The notes under the pieces were generated by a model, which did not search any database, was not told the DNA's origin, and saw nothing but the letters and a program-made list of their open reading frames with translations. A DNA stretch of 64,000 bases from Klebsormidium nitens. Taxonomy: Eukaryota > Plantae > Klebsormidiophyceae. Positions 5,560 through 35,751 of this stretch are shown piece by piece. A program made the position numbers and the translations under genes. The stretch is from the NCBI GenBank assembly GCA_000708835.1, contig DF237153.1:1-64000 (forward strand). The letters run 5' to 3'. How positions within the stretch are numbered: the first letter of the stretch is position 1; every line of letters starts with the position of its first letter.

Positions 5560-6895
5560 CAAGTCAGAATGTTAGCCGTGGAAGTCTGGAATGCTTATTT
5601 TCATGGAGCAAGTTTTGACTGCCCCCCAGCGCTGATCCGTACAACACTGTTAGGATCAGGGCTGGGGCGGGAGTCAATATTTCTGTCGTGAGAGTCAGGA
5701 ATGCTTATATTCATGGGGCAAGTTTTGACTGGCCCAGCGCTAGGCCTTACAGTACTGTTAGTACTAGGGCCAGGGCGGGAGTCATAATTTCTGACGTGGA
5801 AGTTTGGAATGCTTATACTTTGAAGGGAAGTTTTGACTGGCGGGCGCTGCCGCTCCAAGCATTCTTCAAGCTCGCTGTTAAAACGACTTGGAAGCTCTGG
5901 AAGTCAAAAGTTCTGTTGTGAAAATTTGGAATGCTTATATCACAGGTAAATTTTGACTGCCCCCAGCGCAGCCACTTGCAAAGGCATTTTCAATCAGGGC
6001 TGAGGCGAGAGTCAAAAGTTTTGCTGTGAAAGTCTAAAATGCTTATACTATGAAGGAAAGTTTTGACTGGTGGGCGATTCTACTCCAAGCGTTCTTCAGG
6101 ATCACGGTTTGGATTGGCTTAGCAGAAAATCCTGCCTTGAAACGCTTGAATGCTTAGATTCATGGGGCAAGTTTTGAGTGGCCCCAGCGCTAAGCCTTAC
6201 AGTACCTACTCTTAGATTTAGGGCCAGGGCTGGAGTCAAAAGTTCTGACGTAGAAGTCTGGAATGCTTTTACTTTGAAGGGAAGTTTCGACTGGTGGGCG
6301 CTGCCGCTCCAAGCGTTCTTCGAGCTCGCGGTTGGAATGGATTGGGAGCTCTTGAAGTCAAAAGTTCTGTCGTGAAAATCTGGAATGCTTATATCAACAG
6401 GTAAGATTTTGACTGCCCCAGCGCTGCCTCTCACAACGCATTCAGGATCAGGGCCGGAGTGGGAGTCCAAAGTTCTGTCGTTTGAGTCTGGAATGCTTAT
6501 ACTGTTGATGGAAGTTTTGACTGGTGGGCGCTGCCGCTCCAAGCGTTCTTCAGGATCCCATTCTGGATTGGTATACGAGCTGTGCGAGTCAAAAGTGTTG
6601 CCTTGAAAGGATTGAATGCTTATATTCATGGGGCAAGTTTTGACTGGCCCCAGCGCTAAGCCTTACAGTACTGTTAGTGCCAGGGCCAGGGTGAGAGTCA
6701 AAACTTCTGCCTTGAAAGGTTGGAATGCTTATGCTCACAAGGGAAGTTTTGACAGGTGGGCGCTGCCGCTCCAAGCGCCTGCAGGATCACTGTTGGATTG
6801 GCCTGGGGACATCTGGAAGTCAAAAGTTCTGTCTTGAAAGATTGGAATGCGTATACTAGCAAGGGAAGTTTTGACTGGTCAACTCCACCGGTCTC
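5560..6895 (+). repeat. Tandem array 1 of family-A palindromic box (about 12 units of 108-122 bp, higher-order a/b/a'/b spacers)
   Basis: Recurrent (G/A)AGTCAAAAGTTCTG...GGAATGCTTATA...GTTTTGACTG box. Spacers alternate between type a (cccagcgct...cagggc) and type b (gggcgctgccgctccaagc...). Confidence 0.95.
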
Positions 6896-7000
6896 AAAAT
6901 CCTTCAGCTCATGGGTTTGATGGTTTCAGCCCTGGTGTGATCTTGCTCGCGCTCTTTCGGGTTTCGCACTGCGGGTTTCTCATGCCCCTCGATTGACCCC

Positions 7001-9790
7001 TTGCACGACACGTGCGGCGCCCCCCGCGATGATGCTCTCCTGCCGTCAACCATCAGAGAGCTCGTGGCGAGCGCGGCCAGAGGCTTCCTCACCAACTCCA
7101 AGAGAGGCCACCGCATTTTCCAAAAGGTGGCGGGGACCCTGGGCCAGCGCGCTCAAGAGGAGCTCGGGTCTGCAGGCCTTCTCTGGTCGAAGGCTGCCTG
7201 GGATGGGAGCCTGCATGCCGCGATGGCAGCTCTCCAGTCACTGGCGGGCACTGTAGACGCTGGCTTGCAAGAGGGCTTCGAGAAGGTCTTGACATCGATC
7301 AGGCAGGCCCACATGGAGGGGCTCAAGCAGCGAGAGAGTTCGTCCAGCAGAGTCTGCNNNNNNNNNNNNNNNNNNNNNNNNNNNNNNNNNNNNNNNNNNN
7401 NNNNNNNNNNNNNNNNNNNNNNNNNNNNNNNNNNNNNNNNNNNNNNNNNNNNNNNNNNNNNNNNNNNNNNNNNNNNNNNNNNNNNNNNNNNNNNNNNNNN
7501 NNNNNNNNNNNNNNNNNNNNNNNNNNNNNNNNNNNNNNNNNNNNNNNNNNNNNNNNNNNNNNNNNNNNNNNNNNNNNNNNNNNNNNNNNNNNNNNNNNNN
7601 NNNNNNNNNNNNNNNNNNNNNNNNNNNNNNNNNNNNNNNNNNNNNNNNNNNNNNNNNNNNNNNNNNNNNNNNNNNNNNNNNNNNNNNNNNNNNNNNNNNN
7701 NNNNNNNNNNNNNNNNNNNNNNNNNNNNNNNNNNNNNNNNNNNNNNNNNNNNNNNNNNNNNNNNNNNNNNNNNNNNNNNNNNNNNNNNNNNNNNNNNNNN
7801 NNNNNNNNNNNNNNNNNNNNNNNNNNNNNNNNNNNNNNNNNNNNNNNNNNNNNNNNNNNNNNNNNNNNNNNNNNNNNNNNNNNTTGCAGCTTACAACGAT
7901 ACTTTTCAGCGAAGTGGGCTGTACTATAGTTCAGCGCCCAAGAGCAGACGCCTCACAGGTGAGAGGCTCATTGCTGACGCCCCAGAGGTCCAGCTTTGCG
8001 AGCTCTTGTGCTTTGCCCGAATCAGTTGCCTTCTTCGCCATTGATCCATAACATCCTTCCATCGCAAGCTACGCTCCGCGTCCTGCATCTGTTTCTAGAT
8101 TCCGAGGTGTGGTCTTTTTGCGAGCAGCAACGCTCCTGATCATTGGGGGGATCGAGCCCAATCCCGGCTGGGGGGGCGACGAGGTAAGCGATTATGCGGC
8201 TCAAGGCAGGACAACGCTGGGAAGCGACATCGACAGAGGGTGGCCACTCGTCCCACTGCCGTCACTGGAGGTGAGCGCGCGCACAATCGCCTTGCAGCAT
8301 CATCGAAGAGGATCCTTCCATGATTGCTGAGATCGCTTGCGTGCGAGCTGAGAAGCATGTCCAATCATGCCCAATCATGAGAAGCATGTCGTTTGCATGT
8401 TGGTGAGACGTGCGGCATCCCAGAACAAAAAAGGGCACAGATGAGGGAACCTGAGCTCAATATCATCGCCTTTCTGTGTTGTGCAGGAGGTTTACGGCAG
8501 TCCGCCGTCGCGCCAAGCCCAGAGCATGCATTCACAGTTCGAAGCGTGGAGGAGCCAAGCACGTTTGAGCGAGCAGGTGAGTTAGGAAGGTACATCACAT
8601 CGGACAGTTGCAACGAGATATTACTGATCTTTGCATCCTGACCCCAAACGTCTTCAGACTGGCACTGCTTTCAGCCTGGGAAAGAGATCATTGAAGTCGC
8701 TGAGTGTCCCTTGCATAGCTGTCTAGCGCAAGCCCTTGAGATTGGGCCGAAAATGATGGCAATCTGCATGTTGTAAGCAGCAATTAGGTCTCTTTCTCAA
8801 CTTGACTGTATCTAGTGGGTCACGTTCCAGCACTTTGTGAAAGCTCACGGCCTGGCTGGTTGCGGTCCGTGAAACACGTGTTGAGCGGCGCTAGTCGTCA
8901 CCTTTGCATCAGGTTTGCTTAGAACTGATCAGGAACCTCTCATCCTCTGTCCAGATAAGCGGCGGCAACCAGCGGTCGGCTACGAGTGCGGCCAGTGAGT
9001 CCGGGTCCGAGCTGTCGGATATGGAAGACGAAGGCGAGGACATTGAGGGGGCGGAGTTTGAGAGCGTGGACGAGCCTCAAGACGTGGGAACATCCAGGGA
9101 TCGCGCATTCATCGACGATGAAGACGCAAGCGAAGATGAAGAGAACGAGGTGATTGCGCAAGGCAGGTTTCGTGTTGCCAGAGGATCGAGCTCCGACTCG
9201 GATGTCCCTCTGCTTCTGGCTCGGCGCTTCAAGCCGCAGGCGCCGGGACGGGCGACCAAGGCGCTCCAAACAAGCCGCCGAGCCCGTTCTCCGCCCTCTT
9301 GGTCGAGAGCTTCGGCCGAGGAAGGCAGCCCTTCACAGGGCTTTTCCTCTACGGTGAGCGACGGGGGTTGGGCTGATCAGCAGCTGCCGCCCGCTACTGG
9401 TGGCCGCATCCTGCTGCAGCGCTCCGAGGAAGCCGCAATGGACACGGAGTCCGGGTCGGACGAGCTTCCGGGTTTCCGTAAGCGGCGGGTGCTTGATGGG
9501 GCAGCCCGCTCTCCACAAATCAGGCGGCGCCGTCGGGTGCTGCTCTCATCATCGGAGCCCTCGGGTGAGACCGGCAGCGTCTCGGCAAGGCGGAGCGGTG
9601 CTGCTGGGTCGGAAGAAGAGGTGCAGGAGAGGGGGGCCGATGAGCTCGTGCCCGGCGTCGGCGCCAGCTTCGACGGTTCGCCGGAGCCTGAAGACGACGG
9701 CAGCTTGGACGAGTCAGATTTTGGGGAGGAGTTTGCGACTCTGTGCGTGATCGAGCCGCGCCCGCGGCGAGCGACCATCAGTCGAGTGAG
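7001..9790 (+). CDS. Uncharacterised multi-exon protein with acidic/Ser-Arg low-complexity region (fragmentary, spans N gap)
   Basis: Open coding-like block 7001-7357. Short exons at about 8099-8183 (..GGIEPNPGWGGDE|gtaag) and about 8487-8577 (tgtgcag|EVYGSPP...SEQ|gtgag) join in phase 0 to the long ORF resuming at about 8956 (ISGGNQ...EDEGEDIEG...). No recognisable domain. Confidence 0.35.
7358..7883. other. Assembly gap (N run)
   Basis: Continuous N. Confidence 1.
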
Positions 9791-9877
9791 CACCATTAAT
9801 AGGGTTGTTCGCGCTCTTCGTCTGTCTCGGCTCTTCAAGGCCTCATTCACAGTGAGCAGATGTCTGTATCTGTTTGC

Positions 9878-11690
9878 CGAGTCAAAAGTTGTGCCATTGG
9901 AAGCTGATATGCGTATGGAAAGAGGCAACTTTTGACTGGTCGGCGATATTGTTAAGATACTTTTCAGCGGTTGAGGGGGATGTTCAGTGGTGGTCGGAGT
10001 CAAAATCTGGGGCTTTATGGGACGCAAGTGCTTATTATGAGAAGGATTTTTGCCTGCCAGGCGAAGCCATGTCTGCGAGCTTCTTCGGGGATGGTCCGGT
10101 TTGTTTCGGAGTCAAAACTTGGGGCCTTATGTGATGCGAGTGCTTATTATGAGAGGATTTTTGCCTGCCAGGCGAAGCCATGACTGCGAGGTTCTGCCGG
10201 GGATGGTCGGGTTTGTTTCGGAGTCAAAACTTGGGGCCTCAGGCGATGCTTATTATGAGAGGAATCTTTGACTGCCAGGGGACGACATTATTGCGAGATT
10301 CGGCTTGGGATGGTCGGGATTGATCTGGAGTCAAAAGTCGGGCCTTATGGGGATGCGAGAGCTTATTATTGAGAGGGATTTTGACCGCCATGGTACGCCA
10401 TGACTGCGAGATTCTGCTTGGGGTAGTCGGGATCGATCTGGAGTCAAAAGTCGGGCCTTATGGGGATGCGAGTGCTTAATATTGAGAGGGACTTTTGACC
10501 ACCAGGGGAAGCCATGATTGCGAGATTCTGCTTGGGATGGTCGGGCTTGGTTTGGAGTCAAAAGTCGGGCCTTGTGGGATGCGAGTGCTTATTATGAGAG
10601 GAGTTTTTGACTGCTAGGCGGCGCCAGCAACTTTGGAATGGTCGAGCCGGTTCCGGAGTCAAAGGTTGGGCCTTATGTGATGCGAGAGCTTCTTATTGAG
10701 AGGGACTTTTGACTGCCAGGGGACGCCATGTCTGCGAGATTCTGCCCGGGATGGTCGGGCTTGTTCCGGAGTCAAAGTTGGGGCCTTATGTGATGCGAGT
10801 GCTTATAATAAAAGGGACTTTTTTGACTGCCAGGCGGCGCCAGCAACTTGGAATGGTCGGGCTCGTTCCGGAGTCAAAAGCTGGGCCTTATGTGATGCGA
10901 GTGCTTATTATGAAAGGGGATTTTGACTGCCAGGCGGTGCCATGACTGCGAGGTTCTGCCTGGGATGGTCGGGCTTGTTTGGGAGTCAAAAAGTTGGGGA
11001 GTTAAGTGATGCGAGTGCTTTTAAAAAGGGTAATTTTGACTGCCAGGCAACGCCATGACTGCAAGATTCTGCCCGGGATGGTCGGTCTCGTTCCGGAGTC
11101 AAAAGTTGGGGCTTAATGGGATACGAGTGCTTATTATGAGCGGAATTTCCGACTGCCAGGCGACGCCACGGCTGCGAGGTTTGGACCGGGATGGTCGGTC
11201 TTGTTCCGAAGTCAAAACCTGGGGCTTTATGTGATGCGAGTGCTTATTATGAGCGGGATTTTTTGACTGCCAAGCGGACGCCAGTTCCAGGTTCGAACAG
11301 CTCGACCAGTCAAAACTTCCCTTCATAAGCATTGCAGCTTTCTTCGGCGGAACTTTTGACTCGCCGCCAAGCTCGGCCATACCTTGTCGTTTGTGAAATT
11401 CGGCGACTGACAGCAACGACCATTCAAAACTTCCCCTTAGAGTATAAGCATTGCTGCTTTCCACGGCGGAACTTTTGACTTACAGAGATGGTCGGTCGGG
11501 TTTTAAAGTCAAAGCTTTGGGTTTTATGCGCTTCACGGTGCTTGTCTATAAAAGCCACATTTGACTGCCGGGCGGCGCCATCAACTTCCAGTTTCTGGCA
11601 GGCTTGTTCGAAAGTCAAAAGTAGGGCCCTGTTCACGAAGGGCGTGCTAATTTCAAGAGGAATTTTTGATTGCTGCGCTGCGGCTAACGC
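9878..11690 (+). repeat. Tandem array 2 of family-A palindromic box (about 13 direct units of 100-115 bp, two inverted units at about 11290-11480, two further degenerate units)
   Basis: Consensus GAGTCAAAAGTTGGGGCCTTATGTGATGCGAGTGCTTATTATGAGAGGGATTTTTGACTGCCAGGCGACGCCATGACTGCGAGATTCTGCCCGGGATGGTCGGGCTTGTTCC. Unit starts near 9998, 10108, 10221, 10328, 10441, 10555, 10655, 10770, 10871, 10983, 11096 and 11210. Confidence 0.95.
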
Positions 11691-11716
11691 GTGCGCGCCT
11701 CGATGGATAGCTCTCA

Positions 11717-11971
11717 CTAAGCCCCCCGCCTTCTTGCTGCCTTGCAGGATCCGGCTCCCTTCACCAGCGACCCGCACCCCCCCACCCGACCCCGCTCTGC
11801 TGCTACGGAGGTGGTGAGTCCACTTGACGGACGCTTCTCGAAGGCCACATAAGGCAGCTCCAGGTCGTCTTGATAGCGGCGGTCGTGCACTGCTGCCAAG
11901 GTTGCGCTCTCCTCAGCAGTCAGGGGCCGAGACAGAGCAAAGCGGCCGGTGAACTTGGTGTCGTAGCCCAT
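11717..11971 (-). pseudogene. Truncated tandem duplicate of the 5' end of the 11985-12695 gene
   Basis: MGYDTKFTGRFALSRPLTAEESA is identical in both copies. Nucleotides about 11910-11974 closely match about 12637-12697, then the sequence diverges and stops. Confidence 0.7.
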
Positions 11972-11984
11972 GATTCGATGCCCT

Positions 11985-12695
11985 TCAAGAGTCAAAGCGT
12001 TTCCTTAAGTCTGTGTCCGTTGGTCGTAACTGCGTCGTCTGTGCGCCATTTGTCCCTAAACCCTTCATCCTCTTGCTGTCTTGCTGGAGACGGGCCTTTT
12101 CCACATCGACCCGCATCCTGCCGGCCAGCCTCGCTCCGGAGCGACAGAGGTCGCGCCTACGGTGAGTACAATAATTTCTCCTCGCCGTGTAGTCGAAGAA
12201 CGCCTCGTTTGGGTAGTCGTACGAATCGTCTCCGATGCACAATGCAATCGGTGGGGCCATCTTGACAAAAATCTGGTTGCCGTTTAACGTGATAGACCCC
12301 GTGTCGCCCGAAAGGTTGTCTTCCAAGGTGACCGTCCCGCTCAGTCGTACTCCCCATACTTCAAAGAAGTTGGAAATGAAATACTCGAGCCAGCTGACGT
12401 GGTTGTAGAAGGGGCCCTTCCCGTCCCAAACAAGAGCGCTCTTGTCATGCGAGACGGTCCAACGGCATTTGCATGATGGGAATTCCTTGAAGATGTGCCA
12501 TCCTTCCCCATTGCAGTAGGGGTCGACTCCCTCTCGCAATATCTTGATCGGGCGCTCCTGACCCGGAACCGCAGAGGGTAGCTTCAGACCATCCTCTGGG
12601 CGGTAGTCCTGAACAGCCTTGAGAATTGCGCTCTCCTCAGCGGTCAGAGGGCGTGACAGGGCAAAGCGGCCGGTGAACTTGGTATCGTAGCCCAT
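11985..12695 (-). CDS. Intronless hypothetical protein resembling a phage/bacterial/large-virus uncharacterised family
   Basis: 236-aa ORF with MGYxTxFxGxFxLxxPL N-terminus and CxW...LVWDGKGPFYNHVSWLEYFISNFFEVWGVRLSGTV core. Family resemblance is from recall, not a search. Confidence 0.6.
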   Translation of the reverse strand: MGYDTKFTGRFALSRPLTAEESAILKAVQDYRPEDGLKLPSAVPGQERPIKILREGVDPYCNGEGWHIFKEFPSCKCRWTVSHDKSALVWDGKGPFYNHVSWLEYFISNFFEVWGVRLSGTVTLEDNLSGDTGSITLNGNQIFVKMAPPIALCIGDDSYDYPNEAFFDYTARRNYCTHRRRDLCRSGARLAGRMRVDVEKARLQQDSKRMKGLGTNGAQTTQLRPTDTDLRKRFDS

Positions 12696-13503
12696 GATAT
12701 GTTGTCCTCCGGGGGCCGAAGCGTTCCCCTAAGCCCGTGCGATGCCCTCTCTCACTCGTTCGAGCGCTGTGCAGGAGGCTGTAGCCAGGACGAGGGCCGC
12801 CTCGAGCAGGGGGGACTCCCCAGCGCCCACTGGTTTTAAAGTACCGATCAGAAACCCGTTCGAAACGGTGAGCTACATCACAACTGGGGCGTGGCCACAT
12901 GTGCACTAGTCTGGAGCCGGCTGCGCTTGTGCGACTTTTGAGGGGCGGGAAGCAACAACTTCGATTCGTTTGAACATTGCACTTTGGAATCATGTTCTGA
13001 CTGTTTGGAGTGCCGGCCGTCGGTAGCGCAATCTGCGTAGGTGCGGGTGCTTCCATTCTTTCAGAGTCGGTCCACAGCTCGTAGCTCTTTGCAAAGAATC
13101 AACAATGTGTACAGCAACAATCGGGCTGGGATCACCAGTCGTAATCGATCCCCAAATCTAGGGTTCTCGTAGGCTCGCTTGTCACACTCATGTCATTACA
13201 TGTGCATGCGCAGGCTGGAGGCGATGCTCAGGATGCGCCTGGAGGTCTTCCCCGCCAGGGGGCTCGCCGAGCCTCATCCCGTGGACGGGGCTCCGATCGT
13301 GCAGGTAAGTGTCCATGTTCTATGACCAGTTCACGGAAAAGACTACTGCTCCGGCCGGATGATACTGGAAGCTCTTCCTCAACAATCCTGAAAAACATTG
13401 CTGTCCCGCTGACGAGATCGATCCGGTCAGGTTCTTTTGAAACGAGCAAGCACGCTGGACAAGAATGTGAAGTCTTGGTCCCTCCTCAGTACAGAGTCAA
13501 CAA

Positions 13504-13929
13504 CTAGTCTTCTCCGTAGTACCCTTTGAACTCGAACGGCTCGACTTCTTTGTCAAAGTCATCTAGACCGAAGCCTCCACGCTCTGCATTTAAGAGCAGG
13601 CTGACATACGGCTCGACCGAATTCTTGTGAAAGTCCTCAAAGCCACCATTCTCTGTGAATTCCTTCAAGAGAGCCGGCCAATCCACCCCACTCGGATCAC
13701 CGCATATGCCCATGCGCGATTGTCTTTGTGGCTGCTTCCAAGAAGAGCCTTGCCCTTTCACAAGTCTCTTGGTCGTTGCTGTCAAGCTTGAACACCTCTT
13801 GTACCAGCTCGGTCGTGATGGGCGTTCCCTTTGCAGAGTCCATCTTTGAGTCCTGAGGTCTGCCTTTTTTTGAAGGAACGTCCCCCTAAGTACTAGACGG
13901 AGCAGAGATTTGTCAACAAGGATCATCAA
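13504..13929 (-). CDS. Small hypothetical protein, GGFE-motif family copy 1
   Basis: DWPALLKEFTENGGFED matches the W-x6-F-x3-GGFE[DE] motif in ORFs at 20.5 kb and 32.8 kb. The start is uncertain. Confidence 0.55.
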   Translation of the reverse strand: MMILVDKSLLRLVLRGTFLQKKADLRTQRWTLQRERPSRPSWYKRCSSLTATTKRLVKGQGSSWKQPQRQSRMGICGDPSGVDWPALLKEFTENGGFEDFHKNSVEPYVSLLLNAERGGFGLDDFDKEVEPFEFKGYYGED

Positions 13930-14246
13930 AGACTGAGTCGGCTTTCAATTGCACCTTATCAAAGCTTGTCCTTGACCTGATGAAAGCGTTGGTCCGGCCG
14001 GGAAGCTAGAGTAGCCTTCTATTCATATACCACACCTCTTTTATCAGCGTCAACACCAAGGAGCCTTCACAGCTTTTGATTGCTGGTCAGCCCGCTCCCA
14101 GGCGGGATGGCCGTCGGTTTGCTCGTGAGTTGGAATGTCTGGACTTGGACAAGTCGCTAATTATAACACCAACAACGAGAAACACCTTTGGACCCGTTCG
14201 TTTGTTGTGCTTTGCTCACATGCTCTCCGACCGTTGCGCGCAGGAG

Positions 14247-17200
14247 ATGGAGATGGAGGAGATTCCAGAGGCAAACACCGTTGGGCAGGACACGACTGAG
14301 CCAGCTTCAAACGAGATTCAGGATTCCGCCGGCAGCCTGCTGGTGAGAACGTGCGCGACCTTGGAACAGCCCGCTGTCTTTTGCCTAAAGCGGCCACACG
14401 GCTTCCTGCTCAAGTCATTCTCTCGATTGCAAACATTGTGATTACAAGAGGCACTCGGCCCCTAATCTCCCTTTTGTGAACAATCACGGTCATTCAGATG
14501 CAAGCACGGTCTGACTACACGGGTCTCTTAGGCACATCTGCGAGGATTCCTTGAGATTGCTCTTGAGTCCAAATCCTCTGAAGAAATCCAAACGAGTCCC
14601 TGGGCTAGCTTCCAATTTGAAATGCATGTGCGGTTCAGTCATGCAGTCTGCTGACTGCTTCTCGAACATTCCACTCTGCAGAGGCACACGACGACCGTCT
14701 ACGGCCAGCAGTGGTTCAAGAGCAAGGAGACTCCGACCGGCCGGGGCCCCAAGGACCTCGCCGTGGCCTGGAAGACCCTCCACGGCCACGGCATTCTCGT
14801 CGCTGCTGACTCCGCGTCAGATTCCGCTGCCAAGATGTTCACCAGCTTCCAGGACGTTCCTGCCCTGCTGGTTTACTGCGCACGCCTCCGGGGCCGGAGC
14901 AAGCACCTGTACGAGTGCCTGCTCGAAGTGACCCCTTCGCTGCTCTACTACGACCTGGACTACTACGTGCCTTCGAACGTGTGCGCGGGGGACTCCGAGG
15001 ACGCGGTCGGGGCGCGGGACGCAGAGTTTGCTGAGCGGAAGCGGCACTTTGAGCGGCTCAGGGACGGGTTTCTGGAGGCGGTTCTGGGGGTGTCGAGAGA
15101 GGCGGTGCGGTTCGAGGAGAGCACTGCGCACGGAGGGGTCCCGGGGGGGTTCAAGTTCAGCGTTCATGGGGTGCTCAAGGGCTTCTACCTGGAGGACAGC
15201 CGAGCGCGGGGCCTGTTTGCAAAGGCATTCGAACAGTTCCTGAAGAACCCGCCCCCGCAGTTGGCGCGCAGCGCCGAGTTCGTCTGGACGGAGGATCAGC
15301 GGGGCCGCCCAAAGCTAATCTGGGACGGCACGGTCTACTCCAAGTTCCAGAACTGGCGCATGCTGCGGTCGAGCAAGAAGGGGAGCGACCGCGTCCTCGA
15401 GCCGAGCGAGGGCAGCTCGGAGCTCATTGTGGACCACCTGGCGGGGCTCTACTCGGCAGCGGCGCTGCAGTGCTGCGCCCGGCTAGACGTGGCGCGCCTC
15501 GAGGCGTACCTCCAGCAGCACGCGCCCACCCTGTCGCGGCCGCGGCGCCCAACGATGCGCGTGAGAGACGCGGGCCTCGCGGAAGATGGCGGGCAGAATC
15601 GGGCGGACCTGGGCGAGGAGGAGCAGCGCGTGCTGGTGGAGTGCTACCAGCAGGAGCACCCCGGCGCTACGCTCGCGCGCGTTCACGTGGTCGGCTCGGG
15701 GGTCTTCACGGTCCACTTCGACGTGCCAGAGCCCACGTGTCTCCTCGCCGGCCGTCCGCACACGTCCCCGGGCAACAACAACACGTACCTGCTCTACCGC
15801 CGAACCCGGCCGGGGGTGGCATTGTACAAGTGCCATTCCGCCACCTGCAGGTGAGCAACCACGGGCAACAGGGACCGCTTCAATCCGATTCCTATCTTCC
15901 AAACAACGATCCATGAAATACGTTTTAGGAGGCCCAAGGCTGGACGATAAGAATCAATCCGAATCGCCCGCGGTTTCTGCTTCTGGAACAGCTTCCGTCA
16001 CTAGCGTCGTGAGGTTCTGCAAGATACTTCAGGGTCGACAGTAGGATTCGTTTGGCACTCTGTAATGCTAGACTCTTGCAGCTGGCGGTGTATCAGTCAG
16101 TCAAACTCTGCCCTCATGATATAAGCGTTGCAGCTTCCAATGTTGAAACTTTTGACTCGCCGATAAGCCCGGCCATACCTCGTTCTTTTCGGTAATTCTG
16201 TGCTTAGCAGCGTGTACAAGTCGAAAGTCCCCTCGTAGTATAAGCTCTGCAGTTCTTTTATGGCGGAACTTTTGACTCGCAGCCAAGCCCAAACCCGGCC
16301 ATCCCTCGTCCTCCGTGAAACCTTGTGAATTACAGCGTCAACCAGTCAGAACTTCCCGTCAGATAATAAGCTCTGCAGCTTCTCACGGCAGGACTTTTTG
16401 ACTCGCAGCTAAGCCCGGCCATACCTCGTCGTTTCTGAAAATTCGTGGGTAACAGCGTCGACCAGTCAAAACCTCCCGTGAGAATATAAGTATTGCAGCT
16501 TTCCAGGTCGGAACTTTTGACTCGCCGCCAAGACCGGCCATCCGTCTGTCTGTCCGTGTGTGCTTAGGAGCTCAGACCAGTCAAAACCTCACGTCAGAAT
16601 ATAAGCATTGCAGATTTCCAGGTTGAAACTTTTGACTCGCTGACAAGCCCGGCCATACCTTGCCGTTCGGGATATTCAGGGACTAACGGCGCGGACCAGT
16701 CAAAACCCCCCGTCAGAGTATAACCATTGCCGCTTTCCCCGGCGGATTTTTTTGACTCACTGCAAAACCCGGCCATCCCTTCTGTTTGTGAATTCCCCTT
16801 CGAGCTAAAGTCTTCGCCCTCTCGTTTTGCAGCGGAGTTGCGCGTGTGCTCCATTTGGAGACAGAGCAAATCACGGGCTGGACGGAGGATTATGTCAAGG
16901 CGGACGGCATGCACCCGTATCCACTCTTCTCCCTCGATTCCCCTGCCAAGAAAACGACCCTCGTGTCAGCCAACAAGGGCATTGGGAAGTCGAAGGAGGG
17001 AAACGACTGGCTGGAGAGACTTCTGCAACGGTTTCCGTGTGCGACCTTCCTCATGGTCGCAGCCAACGTCACGCTCGCTCGGAAGTATGCGGAGGATACA
17101 CGGCGGTGCGGCGTCGCGGCCACGCTGTATCTCGATGTGCTTGGAAAGATCGAGGCGAACAGGGTCGTTGTTTGCGTAAACTCCCTCCCCAGACTGGCTG

Positions 17201-23943: not shown

Positions 23944-23967
23944 TTTTACCTTGCGCTACACAAGGAC

Positions 23968-26879: not shown

Positions 26880-27370
26880 TGATCAATCGAGCACGTGATA
26901 CAGATGATACACGAAATCGGCCATTTCAAGTGGGCAATGTATCAACGTTTTATTGTTACTTTTTCTTCTCTTTGTTCCGCATTTTGGTGCGGGTTCGGCC
27001 TTCAGGTATGCAGCATTGTGTAGGGAGTGGGGTTAAAGATTGCAATGGGTGTGCTGTTGTGTCGATGTGCCTTTTTTGAGGTGATACAGATGATACAAGA
27101 TACACACGTAAAGTGTATAAAGAATTTTTAGAGAATAAATACGTTTCACATATATAGGAGCACATGCAGCAAGAACGTGTATCAACCGTATCAATCGTAT
27201 CACACCAGAACAGCCCCATTGCAACACAATGCTCATGCAGAACACAAGAAAGTGCCCCTTTCTCGACCACAGTTAAGGCCGTTGCAATCACTTTTACCTC
27301 ATCAAAGAACACATTATGTACCGTTTGGAGCATGATCTAATACTTGAGTTTTTGTATCAATGTGTGTATC
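26880..27370. other. Putative replication origin: convergent GATAC/GTATC iterons around an AT-rich core
   Basis: GTGATACAGATGATACA at 26895 and 27081 (the latter extended by AGATAC). Inverted GTATCaaccGTATCaatcGTATC at about 27177-27203. Further GTATC at about 26939 and 27354-27368. About 70-bp AT-rich segment between the opposed clusters. Confidence 0.55.
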
Positions 27371-27485
27371 ATAAGGAATCCACACCATATGTGTAGAAAG
27401 CGTCCTTTCTGAGCTTCAAATGTTCACTCAGCTGCATGGATGTTCAAAATGGTGCGTAACAGAAAGAGATCAATTCAGAAGGACC

Positions 27486-30400
27486 TCAACATTGCCCTCT
27501 CTTTATCGAGTCTCTTAACGGATTGCTAGCCTCTCTCCAGTAGACAGCGTACTTTGAGCGCTCAAACAACGTGTCGAGGATTGTCGTGACTCTGCTCAGC
27601 AGCCGCTTAATGCTCGTAATCTGCTGGAGGCTCGCCGCACATCTTTTGAGCCCGGAATTGATCCTCTCTGAGGCCGTCGTGATCGTCTGGCGATGTTGCG
27701 AAAAGCTGTCAATGAACAGTGTCGGAGCGCACGTGTGCGTCGCGTAGCGCTTTGCGCCAGACGGCGCGCAGCTGACGGGCCCACTATGGAATCTGTCCAC
27801 AACAAAACAGACAAACTTGGCCATCGAGGGCACCCGGTTGAGAAACCACTCTTGGGCATTGCAAGCCGCGTCCTCCACGATCGTCAGCCCTCGAAGAGTC
27901 TTGAACGGGAAGCGCGTGATCAAGACGGTTCCCATGTCACAAACCGATTCGCCCCCTTTTAGCCAGTGAAACCCGAGGGGCGCCCGATCTTGACAGCACG
28001 CGATGAAAATCCCGGCGCGCCCTTTGGAGGATCGAGGGTTGGGGGCGCTGCAGTGTTGGGTGAGCCGCTCCTCCGAACCCCTCTTTCCCCGACCGGCTTC
28101 GTCTTCCCAATCGACGAACCGAGGCCGGCCGTACAGTAAGGGATGGAACGAGTAGGTCGAGACGGCGCCGGCCCGCTCCGCGTAAGTCGCTGACGGCGCT
28201 CGAAGGAAGCCGCCCTCTTTGTAGCACAAAGGCTCTCGAACTTCAAGCTCAAATAGAAGCGAGTTGGCAGCCCCCTTCAATGCCGCCCCGCGCTGCTCGG
28301 CATACTCCATTGCGGCCCCCTCCAGCTGACCCGCAAGCCTCAGCTTCTCGCCTTCGATCGCCCAGAGGTGCTCGGTCGCATCATGGAGGGCGGCCAGAGG
28401 CGACCGCGACAAGGGCCCTGGCCGGTTTGCGCTGGGCTCGAAGCAGAGGAGGTTCGTCGCGTAGATGTCGCGCACGATCGGCCGCAGCGCCGCCGGAAAG
28501 GTATACTGTCCGCCAACAACGGGATGGAGGCGCAGGACGGCCGCCAGCATAGGGCCGTCGTTGGAGAGAAAGGCCATCCCTCGCGCATCGAGAGGCCCCT
28601 CCAGCAACACGTGTCTCAGCAGCTTCAGAGTGACGATGCGCCCAAATACCCAGGAATACCTGGGGATGAGGAGGGCATGGAGCAGGGCTCCATACGGCTG
28701 GAAGTGCGTGGGGCACCAACCGGTCGGCCCCACCGGCCCCTCCTTGAGAAACCCTTGCATCCAGGGCCGCCTCGGGACCCCCCGGCAGACGGCACACGTG
28801 GCCGGGTCAACACAAGCCCCCGACTCGATCGCGAGGTCGACCAAAGCAGCAACGTTGGTCGGAAGCCCCTCCCGCATAGCGACGAACTCCTCCGGCTTTA
28901 AAGGCGCGTTGCTCCCTTGGGCCGGGGCCTTCCGAAAGTTGCACCAGCGAAGCGCCAGCGCCCGTATTGCCGGCCGTAGCTCCGAGAGGCCGTTCCGGTA
29001 CTTCCAAGGGCAGTCGATCCCCTCCAGCGGCACGTCAGAGGGACGCACCCCGCCCACGCTTAGCGGAGTGAAGCCCCCAGCAACCCTCGGCGCCTCGGGG
29101 TCCGGCTCACAATTGCTGTGCAAGGACGCCTCCATGCCAGAATCCCGCATCGCGCTTGAGTTGGCAAAAAATGTGCCGTCGAAAGTGATGACCTTGTCCC
29201 GCCTAAAAGCGTAGGTCGACAGCTCGGAGCTCGGCCCCTCCGTTCGCTCCGGCCTCAGGGGGGTGCCGGCCGCACGCGCCTCTGCCTCGGCCGCCTCCAC
29301 TTCGCTCGAGTAGAGATGGGAACAATCCAAGCGCGAGCAGACGTGCTGGATCCTCGAGCGTGCTGCGAGGTCGTTGAAGGCCTGCATGGCGGCGTCAAAG
29401 ACCCGGTCGTCCAGCCTGGAAACGTCCGGCCCCTCAAGGCTCCTTGTGGCCATGTCACCGGCCTCGAAGTTGAGGCTGTGGGCTGCTCCAAGGGCTGCGG
29501 CAAAATAATTGCGCAAGAGGAGCCCGTGCGAGATGAGGTTGGTGCCGGAGAAATTGAAGATGCCGTCCTCCTGCAAAAAGGAACAACATCACCGTGGATA
29601 TGCGTTTAGGAGAGCCTTCATTCTTTCCAAGACTTGAATACAGCAGACCATGTCTTTGAACGAAAAGTTTGCGTCCGCTTTGAGTATTGTCGGCCAGAAG
29701 GGCTTGCTCAATCTTCAAGATTTGGGTGCTTCAGCCTGTACCTGCAAAGATACTCAAGCTGCTATTGGAACAATGATGCACGACTTTCCTTTCTTGAGCA
29801 ACAATTCACCCGGCCCGCTTTATGTCGAGTCGGTCTTGCCTCAAGAATGTTGCGCATTATGCTGCAGTGCGTGGACTGATTTGCGATGGCCCATGGATCC
29901 CCATAAAGGGTTGGCAACATGTTTGAAATGTCTGGATCTTGGACTGCACAGCGCACTTGATTGTCTGACCACAACCGAGGCTCGAAAAAAGTACGAGATC
30001 AAAGACCTTGCTCCGCTTCAATGGACCTCTCATCCTTTGAAAACGGTTCAAATTCGTTACTATCGGGAGGTCGACGTACGTGTGCTTGCTATCCGGGAGC
30101 GAGGAGGTCCGGTGGGCTTTAGGGAGGCTCAAGAAGCTCGACAAAAAAAGATTATAATGCAACGGAGGAAAAGGCTCGTCAAGCATTACGAGGATCTTGC
30201 GAACCTAGGAAGGAGCTTCCAGACGCAAGCCATACTAGCTGGTCTCAATCTGCCAGAGTGCATTGACCTTCGAGCAAAGCTCGAGAGCCCCAAGGAAGAA
30301 TCCGAGCGCATCTTTCGGGAGGAAGCGATTCAGCAACTCTCATTCCTTCGTCGTATGGTGCCCTTGGAGTCTCCGAAGAAGTATTTGATGTTTTGGACCG

Positions 30401-32378
30401 AACCAGACTACTCGCCCACTATCAAAGGTAAGTGCAATATTGACTACCTCAAGGGAAATGCTCTTTTACCTTCGGAAGCAGCATACAAGCGATATAAGGA
30501 CTCTGTACTTCATCGATGTGCCATCAACCCGTGTGATGAAGGTGTTAGCTCTCACCTGGCCGTCGTAGGCTACTAAGCAGCAAGCCGCCTCTCGCCCTGG
30601 GGCAATGCGGCAGACCCTCCGATAGGTTGTCACCTCGTATCTCGCTCCGGCCGTTGTCAGCGCCCCCTTCCGGCTCTCCACTTGCCATGGTCGGCCGCAT
30701 GGCGAGAGCGCCTCGGCGGGGCGTGGGGCGCAGAAGTACTTTGCCTCGTCCCTCTTCCGTACACCCTCGTCTCCCCACCGCTCGCAAAGGCTCACAACAC
30801 TCGCTCCACCCTGGCTCATGACCGTGTTGACCTTCTTGTGGCTGTGCCCTATGTCAAGGGCCGCCGCCGAGAGACACTCCCAAGGCTCGAGCGTCCCCCG
30901 GTGCGTGCACACCACCTTTGAGTCGGGCCGACGGCAAACCGAATCGTTGCACACCAAGAGCCTCCTCGCCCCCGCTTCCCGTTGCGCGACTCTCTCGGCG
31001 CGTCTCTCAGCAAGACTTTGCGTCGCCTCGCTTTTGCAACCATCGATTGCGCGCTCTGTCGGTGGCAAAGTTTGCTTCGAGAGCACCCTTAGAAGGTGCC
31101 GGCAGCGTTCCAAACCCAAGCAGTCGATGCCGCTGCAGTGCGCAGTCTCCCCTCCAAGCACGCAGACCACGGGCTCCTCTCCAGGGTCGCTCACGACGAA
31201 GACCCGCAGCTGCGGCCCGCCCTTCCACGCCCCTGCGTCCAACCCAAACAGTGCACTCCCCACGCACCCCCCTTGTTCCAGCGGCAGCACCCAAGGCGCG
31301 CCGTTGGTCACCTCCCGCGCGAACGAACGGCTGTCGTCAAAGGCCGTGAAGATGGCTTCTCCATTCTGCCACCAGCCGCTCATGGAACGGGTCTCCTCCA
31401 GGAACGCCATATCATGATCACGGCACCCCCTCCGGCCGCAGAGGCACCGAAAGCTGCCCATGTGGTCGACCTTGACGAGCCGTGGGACGTTAGTGAGGCC
31501 CCGTTCCGTCGCGGAGACTTCCAGAAGGCGGCCACTAGAGGCGTCGAGCAGGGCACAAGAAAGAGGCCGGGAGCAACAGCAATCGGGGGGATCTTGCTCC
31601 GACGGAGTTCCGACAGGACCGCCAGCGTGCCGAGCTCCCGTGGACTTGGCCCCTCCTCGAGCGTTCTCTTGACACCCCGCCTCGAAAGGGCGGCCGCCTT
31701 GGACTCGCGGCAGTACGGACACGAGGCGAGGTCCCTCCTCTGGACGAAGAACTGGTAGCCGCCCTCGCTCGCCTCCTCCCCTGACCGTACCTCTCGAAGC
31801 TCCTTCGTACCAGGGAAGGCTTCGTACTTGGTGAAGAGCTCCTCCTGAGGAACAGGGCACCCGCTCGCGCTCGAGACAAAGGGGCGTCCAACTTCATACT
31901 CGGCATTCACGCACCGCAGGCACAGAAGGTGCCTTCCTCCGCCCCGGCAAATGAGTGCCCCGCCCCGATTTCGTTTCCTCTCCCAGATGAAAGGATTGCA
32001 CCCTCGAGCGTAGACGGCCCCCTTTCCGCCACAGGTGCGCCCAAGGCACGTCGAGCCGAAACCGCCCCGTGCAAAAGCTCCGGCAGGCCGCAGGCTGAAA
32101 GCGAGCCCGTAATCAAACGCAAAGTCGACGGCCCCTCGCTTGGCCGCATAGGAAGCGTGCCCTCCCCTCACGCCCCCAGCATTTGGCAGGGGCGGGACGG
32201 CAGCCGGGACGCTCTTGATGTCGCTGAAGAGCGGGGCCGGGCCCTCGAAGTGGACCGCTGCGCAGCTCCTGACGGTTTGACCGGCCTTCAGGAACTCGTG
32301 TAGACGCTCTGAGGCTGCTGGCGTGGTCGAGGCAAGTAGAATGCTGCTCGTAGCTTCTGATGGTTTTGCAAGGTCCAT
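27486..32378 (-). mobile_element. KDZ (Kyakuja-Dileera-Zisupton) superfamily transposase gene with Cys clusters and SWIM-like fingers
   Basis: Exons about 32378-30556 (one apparent frameshift near 31535) and 29570-27486. The phase-0 GT-AG intron 30555-29571 restores YDGQ|EDGIFNFS. Catalytic-type motifs TFDGT, GIFIACC...GGES, VEDAAC, VVDRFH and SERIN. SWIM-like CLCGRRGCRDH and CSGIDC...CRH. Confidence 0.85.
29650..30576 (+). CDS. Intronless protein with XPA/Rad14-like Zn finger and XPA-C-like helical domain, nested antisense in the transposase intron
   Basis: 308-aa ORF. CALC...CLKC followed by LTTTEARKKYEIKDL...RYYREVDVRVLA...GG...REAQEARQ resembles the XPA minimal DNA-binding region. N-terminal LQDLGASACTCK is weakly F-box-like. 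Confidence 0.65.
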   Translation: MSLNEKFASALSIVGQKGLLNLQDLGASACTCKDTQAAIGTMMHDFPFLSNNSPGPLYVESVLPQECCALCCSAWTDLRWPMDPHKGLATCLKCLDLGLHSALDCLTTTEARKKYEIKDLAPLQWTSHPLKTVQIRYYREVDVRVLAIRERGGPVGFREAQEARQKKIIMQRRKRLVKHYEDLANLGRSFQTQAILAGLNLPECIDLRAKLESPKEESERIFREEAIQQLSFLRRMVPLESPKKYLMFWTEPDYSPTIKGKCNIDYLKGNALLPSEAAYKRYKDSVLHRCAINPCDEGVSSHLAVVGY

Positions 32379-32574: not shown

Positions 32575-32760
32575 CGTTCCCACGGCGTGCTTGATGGACC
32601 CGGCATACCCACAAAGATGTACCAAAAAACGCCCAATAGATTCTTATATGTAATACGTCTTTTCTTGGTACAGGGTGATTTTTGTGCCCGACGGCTGGAT
32701 TTCCGTTTCAAGGGGCGAGTCCGGCCATGCCCTGCAACATGCACAAAAGAACGTTGCGCG
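32575..32760 (+). repeat. Isolated family-B palindromic repeat unit (about 1.3 units)
   Basis: CCGGCATACCCACAAAGATGTACCAAAAAACGCCCAATAGATTCTT...TTTCTTGGTACA...AGGGGCGAGTCCGGCCATGCCC. Confidence 0.9.
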
Positions 32761-32832
32761 ATGGATGTCTGCCAGCAGCGGTATCGCGCTTGAGGCGCTT
32801 GATCTAACTCGGAGTTCACAAGCTTAAGGCAA

Positions 32833-33300
32833 ATGCATGAGTCTAAAAGGTCATCTGGACGGATGGAACAAGGCAAGTCGCCGAAATCAACGTGTCGCTT
32901 TCTGCCACTGCCTCTCTGTAGAAATCTGTTTGGCATCGACCGCAAAAGCGACCTGGACAAGGACGACTATCTGAAGAGGTGCCGATTCGTGTCGGGTGTT
33001 GTCATGGGAAGCGGCTGGGATTTGAAGCATCACATAGACCTGCTCGCGTTTAATCAGACCTTTTGGCCCCACTGGCAGGCTTTACATGCAGAATTCCAAA
33101 AGAGCGGGGGTTTCGAAGACCCCGAGTGGCCCATCTACAACCTCAACGACAACACGCTCTGCTTCGAAAGGTTCAAGAACAACGGAGAACCGATTCAAAG
33201 AATGGAGACATCAAAGACCTTCTACAAGCCAGGCCGGGCGCAGATGCTTGGCAAGGACGCGCGTAAGGGGAGTTCGGGGAGTCCAGCTAACGTTGTTTAG
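32833..33300 (+). CDS. Small hypothetical protein, GGFE-motif family copy 3
   Basis: YLKRC...GSGW...HWQALHAEFQKSGGFED. Lies between family-B repeats. Confidence 0.6.
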   Translation: MHESKRSSGRMEQGKSPKSTCRFLPLPLCRNLFGIDRKSDLDKDDYLKRCRFVSGVVMGSGWDLKHHIDLLAFNQTFWPHWQALHAEFQKSGGFEDPEWPIYNLNDNTLCFERFKNNGEPIQRMETSKTFYKPGRAQMLGKDARKGSSGSPANVV

Positions 33301-33689
33301 ATGCTCACGTTATCAGAGAAGACAAGTCCGAGTCGTCATTCCGGACGGCATAGACTTAAAGATCTGGACATGTGAAATATGAGGCCGGCTCGAAACTTAT
33401 CATGGCAAAATTGCTGGTCGCTGAAAGGATTCACGTTCTTGTGCGATACACCAACGTGTCATGAAGAAACTACCCAAACACATGCGCCAGACAATCAACG
33501 CACAATGAACATGCATCAGATTGTCTGCATGCACTGGAGGCATTAAAGGCCCTGCATGAGCATCCGAACCTCCAACAGGCTTTGATTGATCTGATGGGTC
33601 CGAAGCTGACGGTACTCACTTTTACTTCTTCAACGTGGGGCCGATCGCTGGCGGCTGTGTCTTGCAGCTGAGTGTTGATGCGTCATGGG

Positions 33690-34925
33690 ACGGGCCGCCC
33701 AGCCATACCCTGCAAGGTGGTGACCAGAAGGNNNNNNNNNNNNNNNNNNNNNNNNNNNNNNNNNNNNNNNNNNNNNNNNNNNNNNNNNNNNNNNNNNNNN
33801 NNNNNNNNNNNNNNNNNNNNNNNNNNNNNNNNNNNNNNNNNNNNNNNNNNNNNNNNNNNNNNNNNNNNNNNNNNNNNNNNNNNNNNNNNNNNNNNNNNNN
33901 NNNNNNNNNNNNNNNNNNNNNNNNNNNNNNNNNNNNNNNNNNNNNNNNNNNNNNNNNNNNNNNNNNNNNNNNNNNNNNNNNNNNNNNNNNNNNNNNNNNN
34001 NNNNNNNNNNNNNNNNNNNNNNNNNNNNNNNNNNNNNNNNNNNNNNNNNNNNNNNNNNNNNNNNNNNNNNNNNNNNNNNNNNNNNNNNNNNNNNNNNNNN
34101 NNNNNNNNNNNNNNNNNNNNNNNNNNNNNNNNNNNNNNNNNNNNNNNNNNNNNNNNNNNNNNNNNNNNNNAGATTCTTAAGAATGAATACATCTTTTCTT
34201 AGTACAGCCCCATCGTGTGCCGGATGGTCGAATCCCCTGCGCTTGATGGGCCAGCCCGGCCATACCCCCAAAGATGTACCAGGAAACGCCCATTAGTTTC
34301 TTAGAAAGTAATATAGCATTTCGTGGTACACTCGACTTCTGCGCTGGATTTTTGGGATCCAGTTTTAAGGGGCGAGCCCGGCCATACCCCCAAAGATGTA
34401 CCAGAAAACGCCCAATAGATTCTTAGAAAGGAATTCAGCATTTCGTGGTACACTCGACGTGTGCGCCAATAGCTAGTAGAATCTTAAATGCCGATGGTGC
34501 GCTGGATAGCTCGCATTCCGTTCGAGGGGCTGCAAGCCCAGCCATGCTCTATAGGATGTACCAAAAAACGCCCAATAGATTCTTTAGAAAGTAATGCAGC
34601 ATTTCTTGGTACACCCCGATTGTGCAATGGATGGCTGGCATTCCGACGCTTGAGGGGCTGCAACTTGCCCACCCATGCCTTACAGTATGAACCAAAGAAC
34701 GCCCAATAGATTCATCAGTCCTGACTGTGCGCTGGATGGCCGGAATTCCTTTGAGGGGCTGCAAGCCCGGCCATGCCCTGCGGGATGTACCAGGAAATGC
34801 CCATTAGATTCTTTAAAAGTAACACATGGTTTCTTGGTACATTCGGATCTGCGCTGGATGGCTAGCATCAGCACACGCTTAAGGGGCTGCAAGGCCGGCC
34901 ATGCCTTGCAGGATGCATCTCCACT
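33690..34925 (+). repeat. Tandem array of family-B palindromic repeats (at least 6 units of about 100-160 bp; includes N gap)
   Basis: Unit GCCCGGCCAT(A/G)CCC...GATGTACCA(G/A)(G/A)AAACGCCCA(A/T)TAGATTCTTAGAAAGTAAT...TTTC(G/T)TGGTACAC...GCGCTGGATGG...GAGGGGCTGCAA, starting near 34255, 34376, 34536, 34667, 34766 and 34894. Confidence 0.9.
33732..34170. other. Assembly gap (N run) within the family-B array
   Basis: Continuous N, with repeat-unit sequence on both sides. Confidence 1.
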
Positions 34926-35751
34926 TTGCTTCGGTACTGATAACTCGATCGATAACACCAAGTACAACCCGGCTGACAGACTGACAGCTTATAACTCCTA
35001 CAGCCATACAGCTCGACTCTCCAAGTGAAAGCGACAAGTTGATCGAAAGCAAAACCAATGCCGCATTGCTTACCTCTTGCTCGAAAAAAGACACGCTTAC
35101 TTCCGCCTTCCAGCTCGCTGTGGCCGGGCCGCACAAATGCAGCCCTCCGCGGCCACGAGTCAGCCAGTTGCCAGTGGCAAGTACAAGCCCATACTGACTG
35201 CAACTCCGACTTGGCGGCGCATAGCTTATGGGTGTCAGGGCCGAACCGGGCACTTTCTGTGCATTTCAGCCGAATCACAGATCGACGGCGCTCGGATAAA
35301 CCCTGGCCATCGGACGGCGATGAGAGTTGGGTGGAATTTGAGACTCGCGCCGCGCCCCCAGTTTCGGATGAGCTGGCGAGTCGCGGCCGGCCGCGTCCGT
35401 CCGACGCGCGGCCGCGACGAACGTACTGTTCGTTCCGTCCGCGTCTCCTTGCATTCCGCTCAAATCTAAGTCAGACTCAGACTCGGACTCCAGTGACTTA
35501 GACTCAGAGCTCTGCTTGCCGATTCTCAGCTGCAAATTGAAGAAAGGAAAATTGAAACCAATGCAGCAGCTAGGACCCTATGCAATTGCGCCTCCTGACA
35601 GTGAAAGCGCAGCATTGACGGTGTCCTGTGCCAGTATCCCCTCAGACAGTGGTCCATCGGGGCTTTTGTGGTGGAAATATGAGTCCAAGCACCACCACAC
35701 CATACCGCCAACACTGGTCAAGTTGCAGGGATTTGTTTTCCTGATGCCACA

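Follow-up and report, generated by a model that had tools for sequence, protein, structure and literature searches.

What kind of genetic unit brings together two primase-helicase genes, a tyrosine recombinase, a DDE transposase and long arrays of inverted repeats in the nuclear DNA of a green alga? The question is raised by the first 64,000 nucleotides of contig DF237153.1 of Klebsormidium nitens (assembly GCA_000708835.1), hereafter the window, in which a preliminary description made from the sequence alone had placed a ~30-kb mobile island at 5560..35000 and proposed a capsid-less self-replicating element, either a composite giant transposon or a nest of related elements. Here we report that the block is a capsid-less, multi-copy mobile-element region and not a set of host genes, and that we are likely looking at the right-hand portion, 35 kb or more, of a giant KDZ (Kyakuja-like) transposon. 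The fuller account towards which we lean, tentatively, is a giant KDZ transposon with a cargo built by nesting two virus-derived replicon modules.

The block contains a spliced PrimPol-Zn-UL9 gene, a tyrosine recombinase, a Prim-Pol/D5 gene, a KDZ transposase and inverted-box arrays of two families (Table 1), and these core modules are all members of multi-copy Klebsormidium families. Other copies were judged from protein collections and from the contigs of four public runs mapped over 1900-37200, the depth values being contig-based rather than copy numbers and the host reference a single contig (depth 21.7). Homologs with a name, known for three of the genes, are K. nitens proteins. The paralog P0172 was left out of every paralog count because it is identical, letter for letter, to the window's own exons, and 965 N bases are unreadable within 5560-35000. 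Gene identities, introns, lesions, multi-copy status, array anatomy and the ending of repeated DNA near 35428 are established. The absence of viral structural and packaging genes and of a B-family polymerase, as first described, holds: capsid, A32 packaging ATPase, family B DNA polymerase (PolB) and VLTF3 had no Pfam match in any of the 147 open reading frames (ORFs) of at least 85 aa in 1-35700, at limited sensitivity, nor had the HUH endonuclease of Helitrons and Replitrons in the same 147 ORFs, and PHROGs returned no capsid gene among 23 ORFs, where divergent capsids could escape. CpG depletion gave no separation of the block from host DNA.

The transposon reading begins at the right edge of the block, where a single-copy host contig of run X1 (depth 21.7) begins at 35399; because contigs are assumed to be built from 31-letter words, this places the last repeated base at 35428. 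For the final 200 bp the summed depth is estimated at ~156, which falls among the values of the KDZ gene (105-272) and differs from that of the host contig, and a 16-bp GC hairpin stands ten bases before the inferred TG end. Two adjacent hairpins (35377-35435) straddle this end, the second with GAAC/GTTC arms reminiscent of the ends of rolling-circle elements. The inferred end is not CTRR, the end motif of Helitrons. The repeats likely end at 35428 with TG, as a Kyakuja-type end, since Kyakuja elements have CA..TG ends, a 7-bp target-site duplication (TSD) and no terminal inverted repeat (PMC12730594), and the end inferred here likewise has TG, with no inverted copy of it in 1-35300. The TSD of Zisupton and Dileera is 8 bp long, and Zisupton proper has terminal inverted repeats. 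The left limit is a different matter: 5560 is not a boundary, because 1900-5500 is multi-copy (X1 92-370) and transcribed as part of the helicase family. Of the island as first drawn, then, the modules and their multi-copy nature are real, but both coordinates were wrong, as the block continues left of 5560 and the repeats end at ~35428. Further to the left, tandemly duplicated ORFs at 1-2502 are highly multi-copy (X1 ~370), very deeply transcribed (~10,700 in run X7) and, like the block, covered in run X6, so that they are possibly further cargo; they have no Pfam match and may resemble CRN/REase-type genes.

The transposase next to this end was correctly named from the outset. Its KDZ assignment rests on Atlas (0.96), on 101 homolog matches and on PF18758 in 11 of the 17 distant matches scanned, and its D, D-F-H and E motifs are invariant in the KDZ alignment (A4). 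The window ORF itself had no Pfam match; CxC4 was found in the KDZ paralog P0158 at E 0.011, under the cut-off, and the Atlas neighbours bear CxC2/3/5/6. A KDZ-type DDE transposase, with a putative CxC region, is what the gene has in common with Kyakuja, Dileera and Zisupton. KDZ paralog proteins map across the frame change of the window copy, and three X1 contigs at that point hold one extra base. The Cys-rich ORF nested in the intron is missing from at least one KDZ paralog, as seen from an X1 contig joint (29413>30576); its XPA-like label, and the HIRAN label of another small ORF, were by-eye motif resemblances that we could not substantiate, with no Pfam, NCBIfam, PDB or meaningful phage match for either.

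The whole block probably lies in methylated DNA. Run X6 shows an excess of C>T and G>A differences (629 and 558 places), covers 1900 to ~35.4-35.9 kb and has zero cover on the host gene beyond; we infer that the library is of bisulfite type, so that only DNA with dense methylation still maps. CHH and CHG methylation of K. nitens is reported to fall on silent transposons (PMC5890265).

In order to assess whether the modules travel together, equal printed nucleotide sizes of JGI contigs were taken to denote the same contig; the clusters expanded were 10 of the 26 for the recombinase and 2 of the 5 for UL9, along with 18 of the 101 KDZ matches. Of the KDZ contigs 2 of 23, and of the UL9 contigs 1 of 4, were shared with the 33 recombinase contigs; these 3/27 compare with 0.27-0.55 expected from a random-placement model of 104 or 50 Mb (P 0.003-0.019), although the 891 size pairs leave room for a rare chance match. 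Recombinase and KDZ sequences stand together on contigs of 68,235 and 13,348 nt, and recombinase and UL9 sequences on one of 41,549 nt; these contigs are not this locus, because they hold other subfamilies (recombinase 44% and 61% identical). Co-occurrence elsewhere, which the preliminary description had named as a check, thus exceeds the random expectation, and since it does, the label 'composite or nest' is right. At the locus itself two X1 contigs bridge module junctions, one over 19101-21386 (depth 44.7, 3 differences) and one over 25462-27767 (depth 32.5, 11 differences, 6 gaps), and 4 of the 6 long junction-type contigs listed have depths of 34-39 against the host 21.7; such near-identical bridging contigs suggest a second copy.

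Several observations weigh against the giant-transposon account. TG has a 1 in 16 chance of standing at any given place, and the window showed neither a left end nor a TSD nor an empty site: an exact TSD followed by CA is absent from 1-35400, the few one-mismatch candidates are at chance level and inside genes, no inverted copy of the right end occurs in 1-35400, and a loose end of run X5 near 35382 had no match in the window and revealed no empty site. The linkage model ignores repeat clustering, mixes samples and draws on incomplete lists. Among the JGI contigs, the 8 whose KDZ copies are closest (copies at least 80%, contigs up to 193 kb long) include none that matches any of the 33 recombinase contigs; no two modules occur together on any of the 14 named K. 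nitens scaffolds (UL9 5, KDZ 5, recombinase 4), and UL9 and KDZ have no contig in common. The recombinase contig 22526-23671 is at single-copy depth (17.5, 0 differences) and 2 of the 6 long contigs are at depth 24-28, so that a second copy is not continuous, and the summed depth differs several-fold between modules.

These same points feed an alternative in which three unrelated mobile families, namely helicase with arrays, recombinase-D5 and an ordinary-sized KDZ element, lie stacked as an inert nest within an island of methylated repeats, the stack having been duplicated in part by chance and never having moved as one unit. The finding of modules apart and their unequal depths speak for it, as do the ORFs nested inside introns and two features of the recombinase cassette: over 22168-26075 a 7,700-nt X5 contig (labelled as another organism) preserves the arrangement recombinase, small ORF, D5, whilst its first 2,486 nt do not match the DNA upstream in the window, and two named recombinase paralogs (P0029 and P0030) are fused to a different, NrS-1-like SF3 helicase. 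An inert nest nevertheless fits poorly with the lack of a left KDZ end with TSD near the transposase, with the three co-occurrences in other subfamilies, with the duplicated junction contigs and with a 14-nt box and an equal core length that arrays of different modules have in common, and we consider it rather doubtful. Because neither TSD+CA nor an inverted end copy was found in 1-35400, the KDZ unit may instead span all modules.

Table 1. Features of the block and its right border (window coordinates).
Feature	Position	Strand	Details
Upstream exons of helicase-family transcript	3754..5709	+	RNA joints 4232>4491, 4550>4776 (GT..AG), 5709>7067; X1 summed depth 92-181
Array A, 12 type-1 units	5540..6901	-	AGTCAAAA ... 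TTTTGACT; 57-59 bp core, ~115 bp period, dimeric
PrimPol-Zn finger-UL9/CyRepA1-like SF2 helicase, nine exons	8128..20019	+	open ~1,528 aa, 0 stops; more exons upstream across N gap
2A-like peptide motif GGIEPNPGW	8145..8171	+	two departures from GD[V/I]ExNPGP; retained in four K. nitens paralogs
Array B, type 1, in helicase intron	9871..11681		13 minus units, 2 flipped, 2 minus
Phage-like ORF (Met at 12695, 11988-12695) and partial tandem duplicate	11720..12728	-	nested antisense in intron
Small GGFE-motif ORF	13507..13944	-	nested in helicase intron
Array C, 6 type-1 units with GCCCGGCCATACC box	16072..16782	+	intron between PrimPol-Zn and helicase exons (splice 15845>16828)
Second GGFE-motif ORF	20509..21057	-	blastp E 0.002 to first
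ORF HIRAN-like by eye, label unconfirmed	21079..21498	+	no database match
Tyrosine recombinase, intact, intronless, algal giant-virus/virophage type	22403..23461	+	catalytic residues, fold matches
Small ORF between recombinase and primase	23512..23859	-	high copy depth
Prim-Pol / D5-type SF3 primase-helicase, broken	23938..26809	+	two frame changes, one stop
AT-richer tract, candidate origin or end of recombinase-D5 module	26810..27488		11 GATAC/GTATC boxes
KDZ DDE transposase gene with putative CxC region	27486..32378	-	one intron (29574-30555); frameshift near 31550
Cys-rich ORF, XPA-like by eye, label unconfirmed	29650..30576	+	nested antisense in KDZ intron
Arrays D/E, 6 complete type-2 units and several partial ones	32576..34917	+	TGTACCA ... 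TGGTACA, 55-57 bp core; between transposase and right end
Third GGFE-motif ORF	32803..33300	+	inside array D/E
Inferred right terminus	35228..35428		multi-copy last 200 bp, GC hairpin 35377-35418, final TG 35427-35428
Host F-box/LRR gene just outside element	35683..36944	+	Pfam; X1 depth 21.7, X6 depth 0; single-copy reference

The main cargo gene is the spliced primase-helicase, and here the first description was accurate. Exon 16833-17550 matches Herpes_ori_bp (Pfam, E 1.2e-12), the nine-exon chain has no stops, and the RNA-like run X7 gave GT..AG joints at 7955>8125, 8268>8485, 8573>8952, 15845>16828 and 17550>18295, which derive mostly from paralogs ~87-90% identical to the window gene. 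The similarity of exon 14682-15850 to human PrimPol is weak (E 0.19) and falls at motifs I and III; the exon terminates in a C-H-C-C cluster that is retained in paralogs. Over residues 487-959 the protein resembles CyRepA1, a plasmid Rep family (E 2.9e-25, under the family cut-off), Atlas groups the helicase with Herpes_ori_bp clusters of Nucleocytoviricota, Mucoromycota and Preplasmiviricota, and the origin-binding protein (OBP) of HSV-1 (herpes simplex virus 1) supplies the four best PDB matches (E 1.3e-10) of a structural model that is of low confidence (mean pLDDT 49). A UL9-type SF2 helicase with a primase, a feature of initiators of the UL9/CyRepA type, is present, and the protein also has a long acidic N-terminus. 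Paralogs occur in five other K. nitens scaffolds and in a K. subtile transcriptome; one helicase paralog, ~87-90% identical to the window gene, is spliced and reaches a depth of ~2,000-3,400 in X7 against 38.7 for the host F-box gene (~50-90 times), and a joint at 7214>14659 in both DNA and RNA contigs suggests a more compact gene in the transcribed paralog.

Just upstream of the primase domain lies a motif resembling 2A ribosome-skipping peptides, for which the consensus is GD[V/I]ExNPGP (PMC3708506). The window motif does not conform to this consensus, and the paralogs read G[G/C][I/V][E/D]SNPG[P/W], with the final P in two of four; if active, such a motif could separate the acidic N-terminus from the primase-helicase. 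Two small antisense ORFs, along with arrays B and C, sit in introns of the gene, and the phage-like ORF was rightly so called (phrog_38666, E 3.2e-13), its duplicate being 67% identical.

The arrays had been described as five palindromic arrays; they are regular repeat arrays, but consist of inverted box pairs at fixed spacing in two families and are not full palindromes. Each unit is made of two inverted 8-12 bp boxes flanking a core of fixed length, 57-59 bp in type 1 (a few shorter) and 55-57 bp in type 2. Three arrays hold 35 type-1 units at E<1e-6, type 2 is represented by 6 full units besides partial ones, and neither type occurs outside the block; a search of the reversed window gave no match at E <0.07. 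The cores do not form full hairpins (mean fold z -1.4 over 35 cores, against -1.6 for the spacers). CRISPR-like and integron attC-like readings were rejected because the spacers recur in dimers and the 59-bp cores form no full hairpins. The two families have only a 14-18 nt box in common (GCCCGGCCATACC), with no homology detected between them beyond it; AGCCCGGCCATACC has 16 matches against 0.37 expected, and the GCCCGGCCATACC box, likewise with 16 against 0.37, occurs in the arrays beside the transposase and in the helicase introns. The features said to tie the block together, this motif and the GGFE ORFs, do recur but are thin, as the three ORFs have only 16-27 residues in common (blastp E 0.002 and 0.06-0.07 among window ORFs) and the 14-nt box is absent from array A. 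The array pattern was found in none of the viral contigs. Two flipped units in array B (11280-11500) are closest to array C, 4.8 kb away, and an X1 contig joining 11485 to 16450 hints at recombination between arrays. The 440-base N gap at 33732-34170 is probably much shorter than drawn, as an X1 contig spans 33719>34171 with 19 letters; arrays D and E would then be nearly one array around a GGFE ORF.

The geometry of these units is oriS-like, which we treat as a lead: in HSV-1 oriS, box I and box II are inverted boxes that, with the A+T spacer between them, make up a 56-bp unit (PMC13483431), similar in length to the 55-59 bp cores of the arrays. In a second alternative, PrimPol-UL9 would bind the 57-59 bp units as iterated origins, prime and unwind, and copies would circularise and re-integrate by the tyrosine recombinase with the KDZ gene as passenger. 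The helicase gene and the recombinase are both intact, the nearest tested relatives of the helicase are replication initiators (HSV-1 OBP and CyRepA1, a proven plasmid initiator; PMC9978351), its paralog is deep and spliced in X7, and recombinase and UL9 meet on one other contig. But that is 1 of 4 JGI UL9 contigs, the cores are not strongly AT-rich, and the recombinase and D5 are uncovered in X7 where the helicase is covered, a weak point as it concerns contigs only and is no proof of silence. For 20000-29900 no RNA dataset was listed. Moreover residues 963-1169, the candidate C-terminal origin-binding region, are mostly at pLDDT <50, which counts also against the role of the helicase in the account we prefer. 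We judge this alternative distinctly improbable, and the box sequences of HSV oriS are themselves unrelated to those of the arrays. Arrays D/E are read equally well as subterminal transposase-binding repeats as they are as origin units. Array geometry and the strongly transcribed helicase paralog nonetheless mean that self-replication may occur. A broader proposal, for which we see rather little likelihood, is a class of capsid-less self-synthesizing transposons in which a spliced PrimPol-UL9 fires at oriS-like 57-59 bp inverted-box origins in place of a family B polymerase, integration proceeds via KDZ or the viral tyrosine recombinase, and the expressed paralog is the active helper.

The second replicon module is the recombinase with its neighbouring Prim-Pol/D5 gene. 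The recombinase is intact, with catalytic residues R217, K266, R331, H357 and Y366 conserved across a 16-row alignment (A1). Its ORF had no Pfam match and its profile found no relative among PDB sequences; its model gave 7 matches at E<=0.001 to algal giant-virus and virophage recombinases and also matched Cre, the N-domain resembling Ndc10, Xer and lambda integrase (Z 7.5-8.9). Homologs form 26 clusters at 44-82% identity, the named ones all from K. nitens; beyond these, 1 distant metagenome locus of 98 candidates (25% identity) was recovered, with 0/55 viral contigs and 0/43 prokaryote genomes. That sole locus (L001:218-937) has a GC of 25%, unlike Klebsormidium, and is perhaps from a virus or a polinton-like virus (PLV). 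The adjoining gene matches Prim-Pol (E 1.2e-6) and D5_N (E 1.3e-9) in Pfam, so both domains of the cassette as first described are there, but it is split over four ORFs; D5 had no relative in viral contigs. Because the X5 contig keeps the order of the cassette and differs upstream, recombinase and D5 form a unit of their own. An AT-richer tract beyond them is confirmed (GC 41.6% over 26810-27490, with 11 GATAC/GTATC boxes against 0.7 expected), and D5 paralog homology runs into it (joints 26790>26875 and 26929>27057).

A tyrosine recombinase beside a primase-SF3 helicase is the pairing of PLVs and virophages, and raises the possibility of a decayed provirus, of giant-virus or polinton-like kind, whose structural genes were lost and which a KDZ transposon invaded. 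The nearest relatives of helicase, recombinase and D5 are in Nucleocytoviricota, Preplasmiviricota and virophages, K. nitens carries several insertions of nucleocytoplasmic large DNA viruses (NCLDV) (PMC5294986), and PLVs pair an OLV11-like recombinase with SF3 helicases (PMC4642659). Against such a provirus stand the lack of capsid, ATPase, PolB and VLTF3 matches, the low gene density, the absence of relatives in viral contigs, and a helicase whose gene is rich in spliceosomal introns and whose family is expanding with its frames intact; we regard it as very unlikely. Only D5-like and UL9-like genes are present, and the main gene has nine exons or more, which sets the block apart from giant endogenous viral elements, where core genes (MCP, PolB, A32, VLTF3) lie in gene-dense, intron-poor DNA, as the lack of a family B polymerase match among the 147 ORFs does from Polintons and other self-synthesizing transposons.

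To the right of the block the host DNA contains two paralogous U-box kinase-like genes at 39100-46700 and 54300-60750, ~14.5-15 kb apart with exons 82-88% identical, and in the second of them one kinase exon recurs as several short repeats (55796-56509); these genes and an OS9-like gene are labelled from a reading of the sequence.

Each part of the block has counterparts among described systems. In giant size within a green alga it is like Zisupton-3_cRei, a 31.7-kb Zisupton that excised in Chlamydomonas (10.1101/2022.05.23.493040). A cargo of primase-helicase and tyrosine recombinase is undescribed for KDZ transposons in the sources drawn upon, where fungal KDZ cargo is TET/JBP, and our literature search, which left Repbase Reports, subscription journals and supplements outside its range, found no description of such an element; the block also differs from KDZ transposons in that left end and TSD were not found in it. 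The 'Plavaka giant repeats' of Amoebidium (PMC11244446) are alike in being methylated multi-gene blocks, as long as 50 kb, that carry a DDE transposase at their edge together with laterally acquired tyrosine recombinase genes, but there the transposase is Plavaka whereas here it is KDZ, the main cargo gene here is intron-rich, and inverted-box arrays and a UL9-like helicase are unmentioned in section 7 of that report. PLVs and virophages (PMC4642659) likewise have an intronless recombinase adjoining a primase-D5 helicase, and the recombinase here is nearest in fold to algal virus and virophage proteins; in the block no major or minor capsid protein, packaging ATPase or terminal inverted repeats were found, and its D5 is broken. 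HSV-1 UL9/oriS offers a UL9-type SF2 helicase and inverted boxes ~56 bp apart, and CyRepA1, from a cyanobacterial plasmid, a primase fused to a helicase; the gene here differs from both in being nuclear and spliced, with a PrimPol-type primase and a long acidic N-terminus. Teratorn, a herpesvirus joined to piggyBac (PMC6431247), also couples a DDE transposase to virus-derived replication genes in a giant unit, but the block is far smaller and has no polymerase, capsid or terminase match.

We therefore return to the giant KDZ transposon. The broken D5, the finding of modules apart and the thinness of the unifying features favour a composite that moved from a KDZ-type end over self-replication; of the earlier interpretation, a capsid-less multi-copy composite or nest distinct from host genes stands, and self-replication recedes behind movement from the KDZ end. 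The DDE transposase sits 3 kb in from a probable terminus that ends in TG and has arrays D/E in subterminal position; it would move the complete unit, framed by CA..TG ends, by cut and paste, acting in trans on a frameshifted copy such as this, with the left end outside the window, in an N gap or decayed. The recombinase and Prim-Pol/D5 cassette (~22170-27400) would be a separately mobile PLV/virophage-like module that inserted and then decayed. PrimPol-UL9 would be a domesticated, spliced gene of Rep type with NCLDV/PLV ancestry; its product would attach to the inverted-box arrays, carry out priming and unwinding and thereby assist copy gain or gap repair. The present copy is probably silenced by dense methylation, with a helicase paralog strongly transcribed, and the viral copying genes might allow self-copying without a capsid.

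Should the preferred account be correct, giant cargo-carrying KDZ transposons would extend to the algal sisters of land plants, and the locus would illustrate how replication genes of viruses can acquire introns, remain intact and spread inside transposons. If the helicase fires at the arrays, this would be a self-copying element free of polymerase B, of a kind anticipated by a review (PMC6431247), and a nuclear counterpart of the herpesvirus UL9-oriS pair. If this is true, the multi-copy Herpes_ori_bp genes of Mucoromycota could be re-read as similar elements.

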